Source: Polyangiaceae bacterium
Lineage (GTDB): Bacteria; Myxococcota_A; Polyangia; Polyangiales; Polyangiaceae
Length of the DNA: 64,000 nt
Direction of reading: 5' to 3'
Assembly: GCA_965222375.1 (NCBI GenBank)
Contig: CBDCTZ010000016.1
Coordinates: 2,016,001-2,080,000 of the forward strand
The position numbers and the translations under genes were made by a program. The notes below the pieces were generated by a model, which saw only the letters and a list, made by a program, of their open reading frames with translations, searched no databases and was not told the origin of the DNA. Every line of letters starts with the position of its first letter. Position 1 is the stretch's first letter. Shown piece after piece: positions 34,265 to 64,000 of this stretch.

Positions 34265-34726
34265 TGCAGCGTCAATGCACTCGGCGTGCGGCCGCACGAG
34301 ATTAGTGCCGCAATGTCGCACCATCGCCACGACCCCAAAACCAGGACGGAGTCGAGAGGGACTTTCAGACGTTTCAGGGCGCTGGTACTGTCGGTTAACA
34401 GCCAAGCCACCCAATTCTTGGTCGCATCGTTGATCTTCGGCGAGCCTGATGGAGTCAGAGCGTCTCTAGGTACGCGACCAACGCTCGGCGGTCTTCACTG
34501 GCCGGCGTTCCTGGAGCGTGCTGAGGAGCAGCGCGGTCTGCCTCGCTTCGTAACGGCCGAGTTTGAGGAGTACCTGCGCTGCGGTTTGCTCGAGCATGGG
34601 TGTCTGCGCCTTGCCTGTCGCGACGGCGGCTATTCCGAGTTGGTGGCCTTCAGCTGCAACCGACGTGGCTTCTGTCCATCTTGCCTCGGACGCCGGATGA
34701 AGGACGCTTCATGATGCATCACCTCG

Positions 34727-36811
34727 CTATGTCTTTGGAATTGTTAGGTTGAGTTGGTTCGGTGCAGGTCCAGTGTTCTTGCCTTGTCGGTATGCACGTG
34801 CTCGGGTGGTGATGCGCTCGGCTGCGTCCGAGCCCACGACATCGCTGCGAGCGAAGATCCAGGGTCCATTCGGTAGCGGATGCTGCGAGGGAATTTCGTT
34901 TCGCTGCGCTGCGCGTCGTAGCGTCTTCGGATCGACCTGAACAAGAGCTGCAGCTTCTTCGCAGGTCAGCCATTCGCCCCGATCACGCTGCTTCGAGCAC
35001 GGTTCGATCTTGTATCGATGGCGTACAGACGCGACCAGCGCCCGGCTGTAGTGGCCTCCCGTGGGCGTGCGCACACCAGCGCGCCCAAGCCATCGGGCGA
35101 TCTGCATGTCGCCCATGACGCGCGCGAGCACGCGCACGGCTTCGACGACTTCGGCAGCTGTGGTGTTGCGACGTTGGCCAGTGCGACGCTTGGGGACACG
35201 TAACTCGGTGTGCACCCCTCCCTTCCAGTGCACGACGAGGAGGATCTCGGAGCGCTCGGTGTCCACGTCAACCCAAACCTGCTCCACCACAGCGCGCGTG
35301 ATGCGCTTCTTCGTGGATGGCTTGGTCGTAGGCGCTGTCCACACGCGTTCCACGTCGCGTGCGAGCTCGAGATATCGCCCGATGTCGGGTGGGCGCGAGA
35401 CCTCTGCCCGCGTTGCCGTGGCCTCGCCGATGCGCTGCTCGACTGTGCGTACGGCTTCGAGGGCAGTATTCCATCGGCGCTCGAGTTCGACGGCCACGGT
35501 GCGGTTTTCAGGCTCGACAGCATCGTATTGACGTTCAGCGCGTTGAGCCTCGTAGCGCGCCTGTTGCAGCTGCAGTTCCAGCGCAGCCACGGCATCATCA
35601 CGTTCCGCCACGTCCTGGTCCCATGCAACGTGGGCAGCTTCGATCGCACCCGGCCGCACGACAGCGAGCACCCGCTCGACGATCTGCGCGTCCACGTCGG
35701 TTGCGCTGAACGAGATGCATCGCGGTCCACCGGAGCGGTCGTGGTCATCGTTGCATGTGTAGCGAGCAATACCTTGCTTTGTCCCGCTATAACTCACGCC
35801 CAGGCGGCGGCCGCAACGGCGACACCAAACGAGGCCGCCCAGGAGTGCAGCGCCACCCTTGGGTGCTCCTGCTGCTCCTCGCCTCTGTTCGTTCTTTGAC
35901 AACATTTGTGACGCACGCTCGAACTGCTCCCAGCTGATATATGCCTCGTGACGGTCCCGAAGCAACACCGACCACTGGTCTCGAGGCACTCGCGTAGCGG
36001 CACGTCGGGGCTGTCCGTCCACGATACGGGTGTGGACTTTGGTCCGTCCGTACACGTAGGCGCCCGCATAAATCGGATTCTTCAGTGTCCGATAGACGAA
36101 GTCGGCCGTCGGCTTCTTCCAGACAACCTCGCCACGCCGATTGCGGTTCACGGGTGTCTGAATGCCGCTCTCGCGCATCCATATCACCACCTGTCGCGCA
36201 CTACCCAGTTCGAAGAACTTGGAGAAGACTAGCTCGATGGCCTGCCGGATACGTGCGTCCGGCGCCTTCTCGAGGCGTCCATCACCTCCCACTCGGTAAC
36301 CCACCGGAACGCCCGCAACCAATTCCCCGCGCTGCGCTTTCTGCCTTTGTGCCTCCAATCCACGCATGCGTAGCAGGTCGAGCTCGTACTCGTTGAGGCT
36401 GCCCTTGAGCCCCAAGAGCAAACGGTCGTTGCTATGTCGCGGCGCATACACCGTGTCGTGATCCACCAGCAGCGTGTCGACCACGCGACAGATCTCGATG
36501 AGTTGCTGCCACTCCCGACTGTTGCGCGCGAAACGCGAAACTTCCCGGGCGGCCACGGCACCCACCTGACCAAGGGAAACGTCAGCGACCAGCCGGCGGA
36601 AACCTCTGCGCTCGACGGACCCAGCTGCCGATTTGCCCAGGTCCTCATCGATCACGTCGACCTCGCGAAACCCCAACTCGCGCAATCGGTCACGCATCGC
36701 GTATTGCTGCCGCTGGCTTTCGCGGTTGTTCATCAGCTGTTGCTGGGACGACTGGCGTACGTACAGGATCGCGCGTCGCGCCACGTGGTGTTCGCCGATC
36801 TTCTCATTCAT
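34727..36811 (-). CDS. Large serine recombinase (resolvase, recombinase, Zn-ribbon, C-terminal HTH)
   Basis: AILYVRQSS catalytic Ser, EVSRFARN, NPIYAG, CRRCGRRL, WLTCEEAAALVQV. Confidence 0.95.
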   Translation of the reverse strand: MNEKIGEHHVARRAILYVRQSSQQQLMNNRESQRQQYAMRDRLRELGFREVDVIDEDLGKSAAGSVERRGFRRLVADVSLGQVGAVAAREVSRFARNSREWQQLIEICRVVDTLLVDHDTVYAPRHSNDRLLLGLKGSLNEYELDLLRMRGLEAQRQKAQRGELVAGVPVGYRVGGDGRLEKAPDARIRQAIELVFSKFFELGSARQVVIWMRESGIQTPVNRNRRGEVVWKKPTADFVYRTLKNPIYAGAYVYGRTKVHTRIVDGQPRRAATRVPRDQWSVLLRDRHEAYISWEQFERASQMLSKNEQRRGAAGAPKGGAALLGGLVWCRRCGRRLGVSYSGTKQGIARYTCNDDHDRSGGPRCISFSATDVDAQIVERVLAVVRPGAIEAAHVAWDQDVAERDDAVAALELQLQQARYEAQRAERQYDAVEPENRTVAVELERRWNTALEAVRTVEQRIGEATATRAEVSRPPDIGRYLELARDVERVWTAPTTKPSTKKRITRAVVEQVWVDVDTERSEILLVVHWKGGVHTELRVPKRRTGQRRNTTAAEVVEAVRVLARVMGDMQIARWLGRAGVRTPTGGHYSRALVASVRHRYKIEPCSKQRDRGEWLTCEEAAALVQVDPKTLRRAAQRNEIPSQHPLPNGPWIFARSDVVGSDAAERITTRARAYRQGKNTGPAPNQLNLTIPKT

Positions 36812-36986
36812 GATGACCTCCCTTTCGTCTTCCGAGTTGTCGTCGGCTGTGTTGTCGGAGCGCTTCGGCGAGCAGCGTGATGACCTCCTTGCGCGACGCT
36901 TCGGGAAGTGCCTTCCACCTCGGAAGCGGCGGGCCGGGTTGTGGCAGAACCATTTGAACCCCGCGTCTTCGTCTGCGCTTCTTCAT
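36804..36986 (-). CDS. 60-aa accessory ORF upstream of the LSR
   Basis: WKALPEASRKEVITLLAEAL; overlaps the LSR start; same in copy 2. Confidence 0.5.
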   Translation of the reverse strand: MKKRRRRRGVQMVLPQPGPPLPRWKALPEASRKEVITLLAEALRQHSRRQLGRRKGGHHE

Positions 36987-37295
36987 GCGCCGTCAGTGCC
37001 CCCGACTCGTGCCCCATGTCCAGCGCTCGGGACTCCTCCAGCAGGCAGCGGAGCTCTTCGAGCGCGCTCATCGACACGCGCGGTTCAGCTTCGACCCGCA
37101 TCCCCGCGCAGGACACCGGGTCCAGCATCCACGCAGGGATGCTCACGAGTCGGTCCGGCGCGCCCGGGCCTACCAAACAGCGGAGCATGCCGAAAGCGCC
37201 ACGACAAACCACCGCGACGGCCTGACCATGCAACGGGTGCCACGCGTAAACGACGGTACGCACATCGGTCTTGTGCGCATCATGTTGTATTGCTG
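36808..37295 (-). CDS. Accessory ORF (DUF5372/Y4bD-like) lacking an RBS-ATG start in the integrated state
   Basis: YAWHPLHGQ..IPAWMLD..SMSALEELRCLL. Confidence 0.55.
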
Positions 37296-39297
37296 ATGGC
37301 TGACACGGCTGTGCATCTGGAAGCGCGCGTACTGCCCCGCGTTCCCATCCGTCACTGGATCTGCTCACTGCCCTGGGGACTGCGAGCGCTACTCGGCTAT
37401 GATCGCAAGCTCTGCTCCGAGGTGGTCAGCGCGCTCATGACCGAGGTGCGTCGCTCACTCCGTTCGCGCGCCAAACGACAGTTTGGGCTCGCCAGCGTAC
37501 GCAACCTGCTAACCGGTGCGCTGGTCGCGGTACAGCGCACGGACAGTGCCCTCCGACTAAACGTACACACCCACGCTCTGGTGCTCGATGGCGTGTACGC
37601 GCACCAGGGCGACGACCCTCGCGAGACCGAAGGGAACCCCGGGGCTCCGCTCGAGTTCCTCGGGCTCGACGCGCCGACCCACGCCGACATTGCCGAGGTC
37701 GCGTCACGCATCGAGAAGATCCTGAAAACGTGCGTTCCATGCGACGAAAGGCCATCTCATCGGTCAATGTCGTCGGGGAACCAGAGGCATCGACGACACC
37801 AAATACCTCGAACCCTTCTTCAACCGCGCTGATAGCTGGTGGGGCGAGGCGCGTAGGACAATCGAACTGTGAAAACGCGGGTGGGGAGGGCCGAGGCGGG
37901 TGGCAAAGAGCGGCGACGATAGCACCGGGAGCGGAACGGCTGGGTGGTTTGCAGGCGAAGGGGGGTCTTTTGCTGAGATGTCGGCGAGCCCAAGACGCAG
38001 CTCCGCCGAAGCGGCCTGCGTGTGGCGCTCAACCCCGTCTGGCCGGGAACTGGAGCACCAGTTGCTCGGGCACGGGCAGCTGGGCCCGAGGGCTCGGAGG
38101 AGCTCGCGGGCCAAGACCGTGCTCAGCGAGCAGCCGCGTGATGTCGACGCGGGTGGTCGCGATGTCAGCCCAGCGCAGCGGTCCGTTACAGCGTGGGCAG
38201 TGCTCCAGGTCCGCCCTGAAGACGTGCGCGAGGAGCCAAGCCCAGCGCTTGCGTGATGGTGGAGCGTCGTCCAACTCGTCAAGCAACTCTAACTGATCGC
38301 CGGGAGCGGGAGGAGGCTTGTCTGCGGCGTGGTCGGCGTGGTCGGCGGCCGGATTGGGGACGACTCGTTCCCGGTGCGACGAATGACTAGAGAGCACGCC
38401 GAAGTAGCGCAACATGTGGAAGCGCGGGGGCGGTACTGCCGAGACCATACGTGCAATCAGGTCGTGGGGCTCGAGAACGAGCGCGCGCGTGCCGTCCCGC
38501 CACGGCTTGTTGAAGCTGAGCTCGAGCTTGCCGTCTGTGCGTCGCTCGAGGCGGTCCTGGGCGACAGGCGGTCGCGTGATGTACTTGCAAAGTCGCTCGA
38601 CGCGGCGGCGGTCCCGCCCGTCCACGAGCTGCGCGGCGTAGATGTTGATGCCGCGCACTTCGGCGATGGGCTGGTCGGTGATGTCGGAGGCGCGAGGGCG
38701 CGCGGGGGGCTCTTGGGGGAGCAGCAATCGCAGCAGAGGCTTGCCGGCGCGCTGCCCGCTGAGGGAAATACCTTGCGCAGCAGCGGCATAGCAGCCTGCA
38801 AGAGCAGGCTCATCCAGGCAGAGCAGCGGCGGCTCGGCGTCGCCGAACTCAGGGTCGAGGCTGCGGCCGTGGGCGTGCAGGATGCGCTCGACGCGTACGG
38901 CCGTGCGTGCGGCAACCTCCGCGATGTCCGCGTGGGTTGGCGCGTCAAGCTCAAGGAACTCGAGTGGAGCGTGAGGGTCGTCTCCTTGGTGCCAGTGCAC
39001 GCCGTCGAGCACGAGTGCGTGAAAATGCACGTTTAGTCGGAGAGCACTGTCCGTGCGCTGCACCGCGACCAGCGCACCGGTCAGCAGGTTGCGCACACTG
39101 GCGAACCCGAACTGTCGTTTGGCGCGCCAACGGAGCGAGCGACGCACCTCGGTCATGAGTGCACTGACCACCTCGGAGCAGAGCTTGCGGTCATACCCCA
39201 GCAGCGCTCGCAGTCCCCAGGGCAATGAGCAGATCCAGTGACGGATGGGCACGCTTGGCAGCACCCGCGTTTCGAGATGCACAGCAGTATCGGCCAT

Positions 39298-39785
39298 CAG
39301 CAATACAACATGATGCGCACAAGACCGGTGTGCGTACCGTCGTTTACGCGTGGCACCCGTTGCATGGTCAGGCCGTCGCGGTGGTTTGTCGTGGCGCTTT
39401 CGGCATGCTCCGCTGTTTGGTAGGCCCGGGCGCGCCGGACCGACTCGTGAGCATCCCTGCGTGGATGCTGGACCCGGTGTCCTGCGCGGGGATGCGGGTC
39501 GAAGCTGAACCGCGCGTGTCGATGAGCGCGCTCGAAGAGCTCCGCTGCCTGCTGGAGGAGTCCCGAGCGCTGGACATGGGGCACGAGTCGGGGGCACTGA
39601 CGGCGCATGAAGAAGCGCAGACGAAGACGCGGGGTTCAAATGGTTCTGCCACAACCCGGCCCGCCGCTTCCGAGGTGGAAGGCACTTCCCGAAGCGTCGC
39701 GCAAGGAGGTCATCACGCTGCTCGCCGAAGCGCTCCGACAACACAGCCGACGACAACTCGGAAGACGAAAGGGAGGTCATCATGA
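39298..39785 (+). CDS. Accessory ORF (DUF5372/Y4bD-like), start predicted to be supplied on circularisation
   Basis: Same as copy 1; its TGA overlaps the LSR ATG (ATGA). Confidence 0.55.
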
Positions 39786-39789
39786 ATGA
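39607..39789 (+). CDS. 60-aa accessory ORF
   Basis: Identical to copy 1. Confidence 0.5.
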   Translation: MKKRRRRRGVQMVLPQPGPPLPRWKALPEASRKEVITLLAEALRQHSRRQLGRRKGGHHE

Positions 39790-41866
39790 GAAGATCGGCG
39801 AACACCACGTGGCGCGACGCGCGATCCTGTACGTACGCCAGTCGTCCCAGCAACAGCTGATGAACAACCGCGAAAGCCAGCGGCAGCAATACGCGATGCG
39901 TGACCGATTGCGCGAGTTGGGGTTTCGCGAGGTCGACGTGATCGATGAGGACCTGGGCAAATCGGCAGCTGGGTCCGTCGAGCGCAGAGGTTTCCGCCGG
40001 CTGGTCGCTGACGTTTCCCTTGGTCAGGTGGGTGCCGTGGCCGCCCGGGAAGTTTCGCGTTTCGCGCGCAACAGTCGGGAGTGGCAGCAACTCATCGAGA
40101 TCTGTCGCGTGGTCGACACGCTGCTGGTGGATCACGACACGGTGTATGCGCCGCGACATAGCAACGACCGTTTGCTCTTGGGGCTCAAGGGCAGCCTCAA
40201 CGAGTACGAGCTCGACCTGCTACGCATGCGTGGATTGGAGGCACAAAGGCAGAAAGCGCAGCGCGGGGAATTGGTTGCGGGCGTTCCGGTGGGTTACCGA
40301 GTGGGAGGTGATGGACGCCTCGAGAAGGCGCCGGACGCACGTATCCGGCAGGCCATCGAGCTAGTCTTCTCCAAGTTCTTCGAACTGGGTAGTGCGCGAC
40401 AGGTGGTGATATGGATGCGCGAGAGCGGCATTCAGACACCCGTGAACCGCAATCGGCGTGGCGAGGTTGTCTGGAAGAAGCCGACGGCCGACTTCGTCTA
40501 TCGGACACTGAAGAATCCGATTTATGCGGGCGCCTACGTGTACGGACGGACCAAAGTCCACACCCGTATCGTGGACGGACAGCCCCGACGTGCCGCTACG
40601 CGAGTGCCTCGAGACCAGTGGTCGGTGTTGCTTCGGGACCGTCACGAGGCATATATCAGCTGGGAGCAGTTCGAGCGTGCGTCACAAATGTTGTCAAAGA
40701 ACGAACAGAGGCGAGGAGCAGCAGGAGCACCCAAGGGTGGCGCTGCACTCCTGGGCGGCCTCGTTTGGTGTCGCCGTTGCGGCCGCCGCCTGGGCGTGAG
40801 TTATAGCGGGACAAAGCAAGGTATTGCTCGCTACACATGCAACGATGACCACGACCGCTCCGGTGGACCGCGATGCATCTCGTTCAGCGCAACCGACGTG
40901 GACGCGCAGATCGTCGAGCGGGTGCTCGCTGTCGTGCGGCCGGGTGCGATCGAAGCTGCCCACGTTGCATGGGACCAGGACGTGGCGGAACGTGATGATG
41001 CCGTGGCTGCGCTGGAACTGCAGCTGCAACAGGCGCGCTACGAGGCTCAACGCGCTGAACGTCAATACGATGCTGTCGAGCCTGAAAACCGCACCGTGGC
41101 CGTCGAACTCGAGCGCCGATGGAATACTGCCCTCGAAGCCGTACGCACAGTCGAGCAGCGCATCGGCGAGGCCACGGCAACGCGGGCAGAGGTCTCGCGC
41201 CCACCCGACATCGGGCGATATCTCGAGCTCGCACGCGACGTGGAACGCGTGTGGACAGCGCCTACGACCAAGCCATCCACGAAGAAACGCATCACGCGCG
41301 CTGTGGTGGAGCAGGTTTGGGTTGACGTGGACACCGAGCGCTCCGAGATCCTCCTCGTCGTGCACTGGAAGGGAGGGGTGCACACCGAGTTACGTGTCCC
41401 CAAGCGTCGCACTGGCCAACGTCGCAACACCACAGCTGCCGAAGTCGTCGAAGCCGTGCGCGTGCTCGCGCGCGTCATGGGCGACATGCAGATCGCCCGA
41501 TGGCTTGGGCGCGCTGGTGTGCGCACGCCCACGGGAGGCCACTACAGCCGGGCGCTGGTCGCGTCTGTACGCCATCGATACAAGATCGAACCGTGCTCGA
41601 AGCAGCGTGATCGGGGCGAATGGCTGACCTGCGAAGAAGCTGCAGCTCTTGTTCAGGTCGATCCGAAGACGCTACGACGCGCAGCGCAGCGAAACGAAAT
41701 TCCCTCGCAGCATCCGCTACCGAATGGACCCTGGATCTTCGCTCGCAGCGATGTCGTGGGCTCGGACGCAGCCGAGCGCATCACCACCCGAGCACGTGCA
41801 TACCGACAAGGCAAGAACACTGGACCTGCACCGAACCAACTCAACCTAACAATTCCAAAGACATAG
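39782..41866 (+). CDS. Large serine recombinase
   Basis: Protein identical to copy 1; GGGAGG RBS. Confidence 0.95.
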   Translation: MNEKIGEHHVARRAILYVRQSSQQQLMNNRESQRQQYAMRDRLRELGFREVDVIDEDLGKSAAGSVERRGFRRLVADVSLGQVGAVAAREVSRFARNSREWQQLIEICRVVDTLLVDHDTVYAPRHSNDRLLLGLKGSLNEYELDLLRMRGLEAQRQKAQRGELVAGVPVGYRVGGDGRLEKAPDARIRQAIELVFSKFFELGSARQVVIWMRESGIQTPVNRNRRGEVVWKKPTADFVYRTLKNPIYAGAYVYGRTKVHTRIVDGQPRRAATRVPRDQWSVLLRDRHEAYISWEQFERASQMLSKNEQRRGAAGAPKGGAALLGGLVWCRRCGRRLGVSYSGTKQGIARYTCNDDHDRSGGPRCISFSATDVDAQIVERVLAVVRPGAIEAAHVAWDQDVAERDDAVAALELQLQQARYEAQRAERQYDAVEPENRTVAVELERRWNTALEAVRTVEQRIGEATATRAEVSRPPDIGRYLELARDVERVWTAPTTKPSTKKRITRAVVEQVWVDVDTERSEILLVVHWKGGVHTELRVPKRRTGQRRNTTAAEVVEAVRVLARVMGDMQIARWLGRAGVRTPTGGHYSRALVASVRHRYKIEPCSKQRDRGEWLTCEEAAALVQVDPKTLRRAAQRNEIPSQHPLPNGPWIFARSDVVGSDAAERITTRARAYRQGKNTGPAPNQLNLTIPKT

Positions 41867-42207
41867 CGAGGTGATGCATCATGAAGCGTCCTTCATGCGA
41901 CGCCCGAGGCAAGATGGACAAAAGCCGCGTCGCTTACAGCTGAAGGCGACCAGCTCAGAGTAACCGCAGTCGCGACAAGCAAGGCGCAAGCAACCATGCT
42001 CGAGCAAGCCGCAGCGCAGGTACTCCTCAAACTCGGCAGTCACGAAGCGAGGCAGACCGCCGTGCTCCTCCGCGCGCTCGAGGAACGCCGGCCAGTGCTT
42101 CTGCACCGTCTGGTAGAGCACGGTGGTTTCAGGGCGATGACGGAACCGGGAATGCTCGGGCTCGCGGCGAGGGTGTGCGTGCGCTGGGTGACCCACGCCA
42201 TGGCGTT

Positions 42208-42223
42208 AGCCAGGAGCGTGCCG
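42208..42223 (-). promoter_or_regulatory. Possible sigma54 promoter of transposase copy 2
   Basis: CGGCACGCTCCTGGCT (GG-N10-GC). Confidence 0.3.
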
Positions 42224-42930
42224 CTCACGCTATGCCAGCAATTGCGCGCATACAGGCCTCTCGCGGGTGGCGAGGCGCCCGCCTCGGCATTGGCGAAGTG
42301 CCAGCGGAGGGCAGCAGCAGGAACTCGGGCTCACGGCCAGCACGCTTTGGCGGATGGCGCTGTGCATGCACGCGGGCCCGCGCCGGAAGGGCGGCGCTGT
42401 CGCCGTGCCTCCTTGCTCGCCCCGCTCGTGTCGTGTGCTTAGGAGACGCTCGGCCCATTGCCGGACCTCGAAGAAACGGTCGATGACGGGCTGGGTGGCC
42501 CATCCCCCCAAAACAAACCGGCTCGATCAGGTCAGGACTTGGTCGACTCGCTTGAAGGCTCGGCTGGAGGGGCCGAGTTTGGCGGAGACGCCGGCACTCC
42601 GAGTCGCAAGATTGCGCTCACGCTGACGCGGCAGCACCGCCGCCCATCCCTGTTCAACCAGCCGGCTCTAGGCTGCGCGTACGTGGCCATCTTTCATTTC
42701 TGAGCGCTTTCGGCTGCTCCACGAATGCACCCGCGCCGCAATGTCCCTCAGGTCATCTGTGCTCCCACCGTGGGTCCTGACCCAATGCACGGTACCCAGG
42801 AGCTCCATCCCAAGAGGCGTCTCGAAGCCCTTCGATCAGCTTCGCGACTCGTGCGAGGCGCTGCACCGACTCGGGGCGCTCTCCCAAAAGCTCTGCGCCG
42901 CCTCCACAGAGCCTGGGAAGGCTGCAACCT

Positions 42931-46365: not shown

Positions 46366-47054
46366 GCATTCCCGGTTCCGTCATCGCCCTGAAACCACCG
46401 TGCTCTACCAGACGGTGCAGAAGAAGTCGTTCTTCGCACCGAGCACGAGTCGTGCCCGAACCGCCCGCCGACGATGCCACACACAAGCCCCCTCCCGCTC
46501 GAGGCGACCAGCTAGAGTTGCTCGACGAGTCAGACGACGCTCCGCCCTCTCGCAAGCGTTGGGCCTGGCTGCTCGCGCACGTCTTCAGGGCGGACATGGA
46601 GCACTGCCCTCGCTGCAACGGCCCGTTACGACGCGCTTCGTGATACCCGACGGGGTGATGGGCCGAGATTGCGACCACCCGCGCCGACATCACGCGGCTC
46701 CTGGCTGAGCAAGACCCTTGGGAATCCCACCCCTTCGGGTGTTCCGCAGCGGCTCCGACGGGGGACGGCCTTGGCCCGCGAGCTCCTCCGTGCCCTCGGG
46801 CTCAGCTGCCCGTGCCCGACCAGCTGCTGCTCCTGTTCCCGGGCAGCCCGATTGAGTGACCCGCACCGCGGTTCGGCCGACTTGCATCCTGCGCCTCGCC
46901 GACATCTCCGAAAAACCACCCTTTCGGCGCCCGGCTCACACGTCTGTCCGCTCCCCCTCCAAGCGGCTCCGCTGTTGGCCGCCCTGCCCAAACCGAAAAC
47001 TGCCTCCCCTACGCTCCCCCTCCCTCCTTTTCACACTTCGAATGTCCTACGCGC
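46366..47054 (+). mobile_element. Internally deleted non-autonomous IS91-like derivative
   Basis: RFRHRPETTVLYQTVQK jumps at ~46423 to the C-terminal HRARVVP..RKRWAWLLAHVF..CPRCNG; ends TTCGAATGTCCTACGCGC. Confidence 0.85.
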
Positions 47055-47930
47055 CTGAAGGGGATCTTACCGTTGGCAGGCACCCGCAACGCCGACATTT
47101 TGACCAGCTTCGGCGCCTTCCCTGCATAGGCTGCCACCTTCGGAACCAGCGCGAAGGGAGTGTACGCTGCCAAATCCCCGGGAGGCTTCGTTGTGTTGCT
47201 CATGTCCGTTATGCAACCACACAGGGCCAGGGCCGACAGCCCTAGCAACGCCAACCTCCACATCAACCGGAGGCTAACATGGATCAGTCCGTACACCTCG
47301 GCTCGGGTCCCGACCTTCACGAATGCGCTACGATGGCGGGGGCGACCAGCAGTGCAGCAGCGGCGTCCCCGGTTCACGATACACGCCGGTGTAGGTTTCG
47401 CCGGGGACCTTCCCTCGGCCTGGATCATCGTCCAGTGCACGCCGTCGTTCCGTGCGCTCTCGAGCCACACCATCATGCGGCCGTAGAGGACGTTGTTCGG
47501 TACTGGAAACACCGGGGCGTTCTTCAACTGTAGCCCCAGTACAGGACGCTGCCGTCACTCTTCAACGCACAAGAGTGCCTGTCCCCAAGCGCCATACTGA
47601 CCACCGAGGTTAGACCGGGTACTGGTCCCGGAGCCAAGAACCCCCCAAGGGTTCCGCGCCCAAGCTTTCCCGACACGTTGCTCCCCCAGCATTCCGGCGT
47701 CCCGCCAACCAACGCGCAGGCGTGGTCCACCCCAACGAACACCGCGGTGGGTTCGCCGCTCAAGGACACGGCGACAGGCGCGGTAGAGGATACCGGCGGG
47801 AGAATCCCCCAACACCAGACTTTCCGACTACCGTCGGGACCATCCACCGCGCACCCGGCCCATCTTCCAGCACGCACGCTTCGCGGCTGGGTCAGCGCTG
47901 GCAGCTCAAACGGCACGGATGTGGCTTCCA
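47055..47930 (-). pseudogene. Mosaic of gene fragments (lipoprotein N-terminus, unknown piece, RCC1 repeats)
   Basis: MWRLALLGLSALALCGC cut at the oriIS-like end; VGVDHACAL..CWGSN..LGDRHSCAL RCC1 motifs. Confidence 0.55.
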
Positions 47931-61930: not shown

Positions 61931-62235
61931 GACGCCGTTGCGTGGGTCACCCAGCGCACGCACACCCTCGCCGCGAGCCCGAGCGCTTGCGTCATCGCCC
62001 GGAGACAACTGTCCTCTACCGGACGGTGGCCGAGCACTGGCCGGCGTTCCTGGAGCGTGCTGAGGAGCAGGGTGGTCTGCCTCGCTTCGTGACGGCCGAG
62101 TTCGAGGAGTACCTGCGCTGCGGTTTGCTGGAGCATGGCTGTTTGCGTCTTGCCTGTCGCGACTGCGGCTACTCTGAGCTGGTCGCCTTCAGCTGCAAGC
62201 GGCGCGGATTCTGTCCCTCTTGCCTCGGTCGCCGC

Positions 62236-64000
62236 ATGAAGGACGCTTCATGATGCATCACCTCGCTATGTCTTTGGAATTGTTAGGTTGAGTTGGTTCG
62301 GTGCAGGTCCAGTGTTCTTGCCTTGTCGGTATGCACGTGCTCGGGTGGTGATGCGCTCGGCTGCGTCCGAGCCCACGACATCGCTGCGAGCGAAGATCCA
62401 GGGTCCATTCGGTAGCGGATGCTGCGAGGGAATTTCGTTTCGCTGCGCTGCGCGTCGTAGCGTCTTCGGATCGACCTGAACAAGAGCTGCAGCTTCTTCG
62501 CAGGTCAGCCATTCGCCCCGATCACGCTGCTTCGAGCACGGTTCGATCTTGTATCGATGGCGTACAGACGCGACCAGCGCCCGGCTGTAGTGGCCTCCCG
62601 TGGGCGTGCGCACACCAGCGCGCCCAAGCCATCGGGCGATCTGCATGTCGCCCATGACGCGCGCGAGCACGCGCACGGCTTCGACGACTTCGGCAGCTGT
62701 GGTGTTGCGACGTTGGCCAGTGCGACGCTTGGGGACACGTAACTCGGTGTGCACCCCTCCCTTCCAGTGCACGACGAGGAGGATCTCGGAGCGCTCGGTG
62801 TCCACGTCAACCCAAACCTGCTCCACCACAGCGCGCGTGATGCGTTTCTTCGTGGATGGCTTGGTCGTAGGCGCTGTCCACACGCGTTCCACGTCGCGTG
62901 CGAGCTCGAGATATCGCCCGATGTCGGGTGGGCGCGAGACCTCTGCCCGCGTTGCCGTGGCCTCGCCGATGCGCTGCTCGACTGTGCGTACGGCTTCGAG
63001 GGCAGTATTCCATCGGCGCTCGAGTTCGACGGCCACGGTGCGGTTTTCAGGCTCGACAGCATCGTATTGACGTTCAGCGCGTTGAGCCTCGTAGCGCGCC
63101 TGTTGCAGCTGCAGTTCCAGCGCAGCCACGGCATCATCACGTTCCGCCACGTCCTGGTCCCATGCAACGTGGGCAGCTTCGATCGCACCCGGCCGCACGA
63201 CAGCGAGCACCCGCTCGACGATCTGCGCGTCCACGTCGGTTGCGCTGAACGAGATGCATCGCGGTCCACCGGAGCGGTCGTGGTCATCGTTGCATGTGTA
63301 GCGAGCAATACCTTGCTTTGTCCCGCTATAACTCACGCCCAGGCGGCGGCCGCAACGGCGACACCAAACGAGGCCGCCCAGGAGTGCAGCGCCACCCTTG
63401 GGTGCTCCTGCTGCTCCTCGCCTCTGTTCGTTCTTTGACAACATTTGTGACGCACGCTCGAACTGCTCCCAGCTGATATATGCCTCGTGACGGTCCCGAA
63501 GCAACACCGACCACTGGTCTCGAGGCACTCGCGTAGCGGCACGTCGGGGCTGTCCGTCCACGATACGGGTGTGGACTTTGGTCCGTCCGTACACGTAGGC
63601 GCCCGCATAAATCGGATTCTTCAGTGTCCGATAGACGAAGTCGGCCGTCGGCTTCTTCCAGACAACCTCGCCACGCCGATTGCGGTTCACGGGTGTCTGA
63701 ATGCCGCTCTCGCGCATCCATATCACCACCTGTCGCGCACTACCCAGTTCGAAGAACTTGGAGAAGACTAGCTCGATGGCCTGCCGGATACGTGCGTCCG
63801 GCGCCTTCTCGAGGCGTCCATCACCTCCCACTCGGTAACCCACCGGAACGCCCGCAACCAATTCCCCGCGCTGCGCTTTCTGCCTTTGTGCCTCCAATCC
63901 ACGCATGCGTAGCAGGTCGAGCTCGTACTCGTTGAGGCTGCCCTTGAGCCCCAAGAGCAAACGGTCGTTGCTATGTCGCGGCGCATACACCGTGTCGTGA
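62236..64000 (-). mobile_element. LSR element copy 3 (runs off window)
   Basis: ATG core at 62236-62238 followed by AAGGACGCTTCATGATGC, as in copy 1. Confidence 0.92.
62266..64000 (-). CDS. Large serine recombinase (5' end outside window)
   Basis: Protein identical to copies 1 and 2 over the visible part. Confidence 0.95.
   Translation of the reverse strand, partial: HDTVYAPRHSNDRLLLGLKGSLNEYELDLLRMRGLEAQRQKAQRGELVAGVPVGYRVGGDGRLEKAPDARIRQAIELVFSKFFELGSARQVVIWMRESGIQTPVNRNRRGEVVWKKPTADFVYRTLKNPIYAGAYVYGRTKVHTRIVDGQPRRAATRVPRDQWSVLLRDRHEAYISWEQFERASQMLSKNEQRRGAAGAPKGGAALLGGLVWCRRCGRRLGVSYSGTKQGIARYTCNDDHDRSGGPRCISFSATDVDAQIVERVLAVVRPGAIEAAHVAWDQDVAERDDAVAALELQLQQARYEAQRAERQYDAVEPENRTVAVELERRWNTALEAVRTVEQRIGEATATRAEVSRPPDIGRYLELARDVERVWTAPTTKPSTKKRITRAVVEQVWVDVDTERSEILLVVHWKGGVHTELRVPKRRTGQRRNTTAAEVVEAVRVLARVMGDMQIARWLGRAGVRTPTGGHYSRALVASVRHRYKIEPCSKQRDRGEWLTCEEAAALVQVDPKTLRRAAQRNEIPSQHPLPNGPWIFARSDVVGSDAAERITTRARAYRQGKNTGPAPNQLNLTIPKT

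Follow-up and report, generated by a model that had tools for sequence, protein, structure and literature searches.

What is the gene of a large serine recombinase (LSR) doing in the middle of the transposase gene of an insertion sequence (IS)? The question is raised by a 64,000-nucleotide stretch of a Polyangiaceae bacterium genome (GenBank assembly GCA_965222375.1, contig CBDCTZ010000016.1, positions 2,016,001 to 2,080,000; hereafter the window), in which an IS91-family transposase gene is divided by about 2.6 kb of DNA that encodes such a recombinase. A reading made from the window's sequence alone (the sequence-only reading) proposed that excision of this DNA would restore the transposase, and that the insert could silence the transposon reversibly or travel with it as cargo. 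Our analysis points to another answer: the insert at 39295-41896 is very probably an IS-like integrative LSR element that parasitises insertion sequences by homing into IS91 transposase genes.

A precise interruption of an IS91-family transposase gene

The interrupted IS91-family insertion sequence, the second copy of the sequence-only reading and here the host of element copy A, lies on the minus strand at approximately 37848-42316. These limits are the end of homology to IS copies D and E, described below; judged by its homology to the other copies, the IS would be ~1.87 kb long without its insert. Positions 38029-42196 within it are the limits of the transposase open reading frame (ORF). 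The N-terminal part of the gene (41894-42196, minus strand, 101 codons) encodes a zinc finger and ends on the Met codon of the motif CPSCLGRRM, which holds the crossover. The C-terminal part (38029-39294, minus strand, 421 codons and a stop) carries the motifs HFH, CKYITRPP and RYFG. As the DNA stands, the two parts belong to separate minus-strand ORFs: Zn_Tnp_IS91 (Pfam, E 1.4e-13) matches a 105-codon ORF at 42196..41879 that terminates ...CPSCLGRRM-KDAS-stop, and Y2_Tnp (Pfam, E 1.2e-20) matches the C-terminal two thirds of a 643-codon ORF at 39960..38029. Both domains of the IS91 transposase type are found, the N-terminal Zn-binding domain and the HUH/Tyr rolling-circle domain, with HFH and the single Tyr in CKYITRPP.

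Read on the IS strand, the N-terminal part enters foreign DNA right after the ATG at 41896-41894, and the C-terminal part restarts right after the ATG at 39297-39295. The crossover lies inside this core trinucleotide, which at the left junction (39295-39297) reads CAT on the plus strand and ATG on the IS strand, and which recurs at the right junction (41894-41896). Joining 42196-41894 to 39294-38029 gives 1569 nt, that is 522 codons and a stop, with no internal stop codon, and the rejoined product contains HFH, CKYITRPP and RYFG. The prediction that removal of the insert would rejoin the N-terminal zinc finger to the HUH (HFH) and Tyr part without stops was therefore correct, down to an exact ATG-edged junction. 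The interruption is real and precise, and not a chance open frame, because this junction is exact, the same 2599-bp skip occurs in contigs from other organisms, and relatives of the gene are uninterrupted (see below).

The insert, copy A of the LSR element, spans 39295-41896 on the plus strand and measures 2602 nt with the 3-nt core at both edges, or 2599 nt net. It encodes the LSR and two small upstream ORFs and carries no cargo, and its LSR coding strand is opposite to that of the IS91 transposase. Conserved coding sequence of ~490 nt precedes the LSR gene, and only 30 nt of element DNA follow the LSR stop codon. The LSR gene (39782-41866, plus strand, 694 aa) is intact in copy A. Its product has an N-terminal catalytic domain (Pfam Resolvase, residues 14-163, E 2.5e-20), in which the serine motif YVRQS (S21) is nearly invariant across 32 aligned relatives, followed by a Recombinase domain (PF07508, E 1.2e-19) and a zinc ribbon (Zn_ribbon_recom, PF13408, E 4.4e-7). 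Beyond the usual zinc-ribbon and coiled-coil region, C-terminal residues 614-658 match a MerR/excisionase-type helix-turn-helix (HTH_17, E 4.9e-6; TIGR01764 'excise', E 0.01), and some LSR relatives carry the source name 'excisionase family DNA binding protein'.

The enzyme and its chemistry are those of known serine integrases. The element has integrated conservatively, at a short shared core, in fixed orientation and with no target-site duplication. The sole sequence common to both junctions is ATG, and the empty site is the left flank, ATG and the right flank. In the joined element ends, an 8-bp inverted repeat (GCATCATG ... CATGATGC), read directly from the sequences, is symmetric about the shared trinucleotide; an inverted repeat around the core would be the layout expected of the attachment site that an LSR uses on a circular element (attP). 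The two exchanged bases are probably a non-palindromic pair, because the orientation of the insertions is uniform.

Five copies at one codon of diverged IS copies

A blastn search of the genome (10.56 Mb, 16 contigs) found five copies of the element, A to E, at 99.85-100% identity; any two agree at 2598-2602 of 2602 nt. Copy C lies at 34697-37298 on the minus strand, inverted relative to A, with its LSR gene at 36811..34727. Its host is an IS91 copy on the plus strand with a truncated transposase gene, the N-terminal part at 34286-34699 and a C-terminal remnant at 37299-~37724. Copy B, also on the minus strand, starts at 62236 and runs past the window end at 64000 (C16:2078236-2080837 in genome coordinates), with the N-terminal part of its host IS91 gene at 61942-62238 on the plus strand. 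Copies D and E lie outside the window, at C16:2364484-2367085 and C14:677570-680171. Every one of the five has IS91 transposase DNA on either side, and neither the ATG nor the orientation varies.

The flanks tell a different story from the elements: in pairwise comparisons, the 300-nt flank on the N-terminal side is 75-95% identical and the 400-nt flank on the C-terminal side 57-95%, and the drop in identity falls exactly at the ATG core in every pair. Because near-identical elements sit at one Met codon of IS copies whose flanks are only 57-95% identical, the sequences say that the five copies are independent site-specific insertions into IS copies that had already diverged, and not cargo. 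The LSR gene is intact in A, B and C, and a nonsense mutation at LSR codon 301 is common to D and E. The simplest reading of the latter is that a defective D/E element may have been mobilised in trans by the intact LSRs of A, B and C; conversion between the two copies is an alternative for the shared nonsense codon.

Copies C and A, together with part of their host IS, form an inverted repeat of 3128 nt with 98% complementarity and arms 1346 nt apart (34496-37623 and 38970-42097). Recombination between these arms, whether homologous or LSR-mediated, would invert the short segment that holds both IS tails.

The target site, occupied and empty

In all five copies the crossover codon is the Met of CPSC..RRM/A (the slash marks the junction here and below), between the zinc finger and the catalytic domain. 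When the genome, translated in six frames, was scanned with a regular expression, six CPSC..RRM loci were found, five of them occupied, and every one of the five sites that belong to copy A's IS91 subfamily is occupied. The sixth locus (contig C15) is uninterrupted and belongs to a distant IS91 relative, with 7-10 mismatches in 24 left positions and 12-13 in 24 right positions to the occupied sites. Among the five occupied variants of the chromosomal attachment site (attB), 5 of the 24 left positions and 8 of the 24 right positions vary, mostly third positions of codons.

Runs X5 and X6, from other organisms, each have one contig in which position 39294 is joined to 41894, a skip of 2599 nt with three ambiguous letters. 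Since the joint is contiguous, an empty site exists in nature with exactly the predicted junction. Uninterrupted CPSC..RRM/x is also present in 15 of 30 IS91 loci fetched from 40 related genomes. Conversely, a metagenome contig (L081) has a 78%-identical LSR that adjoins CPSCNARRM, with codon and orientation as in the five copies. Run X5, whose organism has the empty IS91 site, also holds short contigs at 2-3x depth that are 92-97% similar to parts of the LSR element (39454-41778); a related element may be carried by a minority of the cells, or by a different organism in the sample.

Relatives of the LSR in other insertion sequence genes

The LSR belongs to a large family. Among 8000 candidates scored, 6960 relatives of ~690 aa were found at E<=0.001, many of them on contigs of only 2.5-3.4 kb, the size at which a repeat assembles alone. 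We surveyed 168 loci: 80 from species genomes (39-60% identity; Acidobacteriota, Planctomycetota, Alpha-, Beta- and Gammaproteobacteria, Myxococcota), 80 from metagenomes and a few from the genome's relatives. Flanking ORFs were assigned by Pfam and by tblastn with representative flanks. Of these loci, which are not independent samples because many metagenome contigs are closely related, 116 abut or split IS genes: istB of IS21 (66), IS3/IS481-type rve genes (33), orf2 of IS66 (TnpB_IS66, 12), IS91 (3), DDE_Tnp_1 (1) and IS110 (1). Both halves of one target gene flank the element in at least 53 loci. When IS91 pieces were compared by tblastn with the first 80 family loci, IS91 was found only beside L058.

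The relatives, at 39-78% identity to the LSR of the window, split conserved motifs of these other IS genes. In the IstB lineage the junction falls in the Walker A loop (P-loop), FLGP/..GTGKSHLA. In IS3-type genes it is W..DYN/..RPHS, near the C-terminus of the transposase, an arrangement also present on plasmid pRL10 of Rhizobium johnstonii 3841, and in IS66 orf2 it is W.DGDG/..KRLE. Other IS91 junctions are RYY/G (L058) and a third site upstream of the zinc finger (L163). By eye, the junction of L018 is YVLKN/ of a Y1-type HUH transposase. At L162, in a genome of the same genus (G002), the junction lies in a DUF559 gene, in two identical copies.

In a FastTree tree of 129 full-length LSRs, most proteins cluster by target. 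One clade of 74 (support 1.0) contains 56 proteins that target IstB, and another of 46 (support 0.66) contains 22 that target rve genes; the LSR of the window groups with L081, L058 and L018 in a clade of weak support (0.12). The family is also found by tblastn on 259 plasmid records, 165 of them predicted to be conjugative, where its genes bear no annotation beyond 'recombinase family protein' and 'hypothetical protein'.

A few of the surveyed sites lie outside IS genes. L048 (Caballeronia temeraria) sits between the finger and HHH domains of a DnaE-like polymerase, and the sites at L057/L062 and L074 adjoin DruA (Druantia) fragments and a tyrosine integrase. At 6000-6800 of L044 (Paraburkholderia piptadeniae), a group II intron reverse transcriptase/maturase lies less than 1 kb from an LSR-interrupted IS3-type transposase gene, an arrangement that would be mobile elements nested three deep.

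The habit of this family of targeting IS genes is probably undescribed. Full-text literature searches turned up neither an account of IS-gene targeting by serine-recombinase elements nor a mention of DUF5372, a domain discussed below. In the parts of a large LSR survey that were available to us, competence genes are enriched among targets and transposases are not mentioned, supplementary target tables aside (PMC10083194).

Homing weighed against switching, conversion and carriage

The sequence-only reading likened the insert to skin and nifD-type interruption elements, through which the transposon could be silenced reversibly. Part of this stands: an LSR element does interrupt the gene, and its precise removal would give an uninterrupted transposase of 522 codons at A and, at D, of 518. 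Further points in favour of a regulated, reversible DNA switch, by which the host or the IS would turn IS91 transposition on and off through LSR excision and re-integration, are that in NCBIfam the LSR comes closest to the heterocyst excisase XisF, though far under the cut-off (101 vs 375 bits), and that the small ORFs could set directionality. The analogy with a developmental switch finds no support in the targets. Joining the flanks at E, C and B gives 403, 315 and 200 codons, the genes being truncated or frameshifted, so excision would restore only two of the five transposases. The interrupted gene is a selfish one, not a host gene needed in a terminal cell. A developmentally excised element is a single insertion whose host gene is needed after excision, whereas here there are five near-identical copies, all in IS transposase genes, with relatives that hit several IS families, a pattern that points to selfish spread. 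The excised form was not seen in contigs of the same organism. The IS91 transposase of copy A is restorable in principle, yet nothing suggests that the cell uses the insert as a switch, and we regard such a switch as quite unlikely.

A second possibility is one old insertion whose inserts were homogenised later by gene conversion, with an LSR that is not currently mobile. Recombination can homogenise long identical repeats, copy E has the look of a mosaic (its identity to A is 91% in the N-terminal flank and 95% in the C-terminal flank), and two LSR genes share a nonsense codon. Conversion tracts, however, would not be bounded left and right by one and the same 3-nt core in each of the five copies. 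The 78% relative at the same codon in an unrelated metagenome contig and the empty sites elsewhere mark the site as a recombination target, and three LSR genes are intact. We find this history very unlikely.

A single entry of the LSR unit into one IS91, followed by copying with the composite IS by rolling circle, a form of the cargo idea, is hardly credible: every copy does lie inside an IS91, at the same position and in the same orientation, and IS91-family elements are known to carry adjacent DNA, but cargo and carrier would then be of the same age, whereas the closest pair, D and E, has no difference in 2602 nt of element and 5-6% difference (94-95% identity) between the host IS copies, the contrast between element and flanks breaks exactly at the core in every pair, and all the interrupted transposases are non-functional as they stand. 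The sequences of this genome give the cargo idea no support; hitch-hiking in general may still occur.

A selfish homing strategy fits the pattern better than regulation of one IS. Some observations count against homing. Two of the five LSR genes are broken. In contigs of runs X1 and X2, from the same organism, no element-spanning joint and no circle junction was found, which is no evidence against excision, contigs being assemblies that drop rare forms; there the element assembles as a separate repeat contig of 2610 nt. The exact empty attB is seen in other organisms and not in the contigs of this one. Of the 168 family loci, 6 adjoin non-IS genes (DruA twice, and a DnaE-like polymerase, a tyrosine integrase, T2SSE and DUF29), and 46 have no assigned target, 22 of these with too little flank.

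A small gene that integration would split

The region upstream of the LSR gene is conserved at the protein level in two frames across the family (tblastx). The first, the body of orf1 (39298-39785, plus strand), encodes a DUF5372-like KOW/SH3-like barrel and a helix, followed by a low-complexity tail, and its stop codon overlaps the ATG of the LSR gene. Its frame is open for ~150-160 codons across the family, with invariant residues Y, H, G, P and W (Y.WHP..G ... P.WM). DUF5372 reaches 26.7 bits in the relative at L163 and E<=0.01 in 14 of 63 aligned relatives. The predicted model of the orf1 product has a pLDDT of 84.9 and shows a small KOW/SH3-like barrel and then a long helix. The second frame, orf2 (39607-39789, plus strand, 60 aa; ..LF..P.W..LP.E.R....L..LL), lies out of frame inside the orf1 tail, and its stop overlaps the LSR start; across the family it has ~63 aa and the motif ..DLF..P.W..LP.E.R... 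A scan against NCBIfam returned nothing for orf1 or orf2, and a Pfam scan nothing for orf2. In most relatives both ORF stops lie within a few nt of the LSR ATG, and among 15 loci measured, 8 show a spacing of -3 between the orf1 stop and the LSR start. The overlap of orf1, orf2 and the LSR gene looks like a three-way node of translational coupling.

At its left end orf1 has no start codon with a ribosome-binding site, though conservation at the protein level extends to the edge of the element; an internal GTG at 39330 lacks a Shine-Dalgarno sequence. A start is present at the opposite end of the element. At 41868-41883 (plus strand), a Shine-Dalgarno-like GAGGTG (41868-41873) and an ATG (41881-41883), 15 nt after the LSR stop, open an ORF that reads outward. 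Every lineage inspected has GAGGTG or a close variant 15 nt past the LSR stop and an outward ATG or GTG 7-8 nt later. In the window, the ORF from this ATG has 20 codons in the integrated state versus 167 codons when the element ends are joined, running through orf1 to the LSR start. Across the family, where the exact ends of other loci are not known and element length modulo 3 was taken from the frames of the target halves, 42 of 44 loci (21 of 22 distinct contexts) have the right-end start in the frame of orf1, where chance would give one in three, when a match to GAGGTG of at least five in six positions is required and the 9 loci without such a start are excluded. The junctions of L091 (IstB), L014 (rve) and L050 (IS66) are in frame by hand too. 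This arrangement suggests that integration splits orf1, and that full-length Orf1 would be translatable only from the circular form.

Several findings weigh against this view of orf1. The outcome of the frame test depended on the choice of the right-end start codon: a crude choice gave 21 of 30 in frame, and a search window that was too short gave 22 of 49. At the left end, the first codons could be conserved as binding sites of the recombinase in attP and not as coding sequence. The orf1 of the window itself matches Pfam DUF5372 at E 0.02-0.04 and 14.4-15.4 bits, under the gathering cut-off of 25. Its model found no match in the PDB by Foldseek at E<=0.001, and in a wider structure comparison the best Z score, 5.8, went to generic KOW/SH3-like barrels over residues 1-50, within background. 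Any role for the putative products of the two small ORFs is conjectural. No sigma-70-like promoter was found in 38900-42300, where 0.4 would be expected; the promoter is predicted within the 3' portion of the LSR gene or in DNA flanking it.

How the element may work

In the mechanism that we propose, the LSR would recognise as attB the most conserved coding DNA of IS91 transposase genes, CPSC..RRM/A. Integration would proceed by conservative site-specific recombination within the shared ATG, without target duplication and in constant orientation. Silencing of the IS would be a by-product, and precise excision would restore the transposase where its gene is still intact.

Integration would also part orf1, leaving its ribosome-binding site, ATG and five codons at the right end of the element and the remainder at the left end, and complete Orf1 would come only from the excised circle, the attP form. 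Because the stops of orf1 and orf2 overlap the LSR start codon, their translation would couple expression of the recombinase to the circular state and so favour re-integration. Through this gene, divided across attP, the element probably senses whether it is integrated. The two conserved small ORFs are candidate directionality factors: a small protein, or an N-terminally short Orf1, may give directionality to excision, which is a guess.

Comparison with known systems

LSR elements that interrupt genes are exemplified by skin of Bacillus subtilis with SpoIVCA, SPbeta with SprA-SprB, and the fdxN element of Anabaena with XisF. The element of the window resembles them in that an LSR element lies inside a coding sequence, precise excision restores the frame, and small accessory proteins are encoded beside the recombinase. 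These elements, however, are single-copy, prophage-like, tens of kb long, situated in host genes and excised on a developmental cue, whereas the element of the window is 2.6 kb long and multi-copy, and sits in genes of mobile elements, three of its five targets being dead genes.

Mobile elements that home into other mobile elements are represented by the 'res-site hunters' Tn5053/Tn402 and by the group II intron RmInt1 in ISRm2011-2. Their landing site is likewise a conserved functional sequence in another mobile element, and so one that is safe, present in many copies and horizontally travelling. Their chemistry differs from that of an LSR: a DDE transposase with TniQ in the former, a retrohoming ribozyme in the latter.

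Tn4451/Tn4453, with TnpX, and Tn5397, with TndX, also show LSR-dependent movement, a circular intermediate, and an end joining that alters expression of the recombination gene. Judging by its title, a paper by Lyras and Rood of 2000 reportedly concerns expression that depends on joined ends for TnpX of Tn4451. In the TnpX/TndX systems it is a promoter that is assembled at the joint, whereas here a ribosome-binding site and a start codon would be joined to the body of an ORF. They carry cargo and have loosely defined targets, whereas the element of the window has no cargo and a long, specific site. According to the passages available of the LSR survey cited above, the multi-targeting clade of TnpX and TndX carries DUF4368 and is relaxed in its choice of target (PMC10083194). 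The LSR of the window has no DUF4368 among its Pfam hits at E<=0.01, and its five insertions lie at one defined site. State-dependent expression from promoters assembled at the joint of the circular form is also recorded for ICEclc and ICEKp1 in the part of a further source available here (PMC13023037). A coding sequence split at the joint would be a variation on such joint-assembled promoters, one that we did not find described.

The IS607 family resembles the element of the window as a small element that encodes essentially only a serine recombinase. IS607 transposases are small, with the DNA-binding domain ahead of the catalytic domain. The LSR of the window has 694 aa, an N-terminal catalytic domain and a specific site, in contrast to the minimal target specificity attributed to IS607 in the portion available of one paper (PMC4058570). 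IS110 and IS1111 are site-specific insertion sequences that, as far as the available part of another paper goes, make no target duplication, have conserved repeated targets and use an RNA-guided DEDD transposase (PMC11187229); no such enzyme is encoded in the element of the window.

Surroundings of the IS copies

The window holds one more piece of IS91, an internally deleted remnant at 46366-47056 on the plus strand, which has neither the attachment site nor an LSR element and takes part in inverted-repeat pairs I2-I6. Over its first 58 nt it matches 42098-42155 of copy A with 100% identity, and its 3' part matches 38039-38338 at 84-90%. Outside the window, 4 kb from copy D, C16:2359099-2360280 holds part of a different LSR, 35% identical to residues 276-670, in a region with several IS91 fragments. 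The genes around the IS copies are ordinary chromosomal ones: a SulP transporter, a histidine kinase, Ser/Thr kinases and a sigma-54 activator.

Implications

On balance we lean toward a broader view, in which the element of the window is a member of a large, widespread and unnamed class of ~2.6-kb 'IS-hunter' elements (orf1-orf2-LSR). These would be hyperparasites of insertion sequences with lineage-specific attB sites in conserved IS-gene motifs (the P-loop of IstB, YN..RPHS of IS3, IS66 orf2, CPSC..RRM and RYYG of IS91, and the motif of a Y1 HUH transposase) and with split-gene sensing of their state, and they would ride on insertion sequences and plasmids while disabling the former, a natural brake on IS activity.

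If this is true, many annotated pairs of a 'recombinase family protein' and a 'hypothetical protein', including that on pRL10 of Rhizobium johnstonii 3841, are mobile elements in their own right, and IS-hunter elements would account for many pseudogenised transposases. Serine integrases could then be said to evolve specificity for DNA that encodes protein motifs conserved across phyla, and the related LSRs of this family, with attB/attP pairs that are known and differ, would form a natural series useful for integrase engineering. The split orf1 would be a compact sensor of state at the level of translation, where known sensors assemble a promoter at the circle junction. Hyperparasitism of this kind could influence IS load and genome stability.

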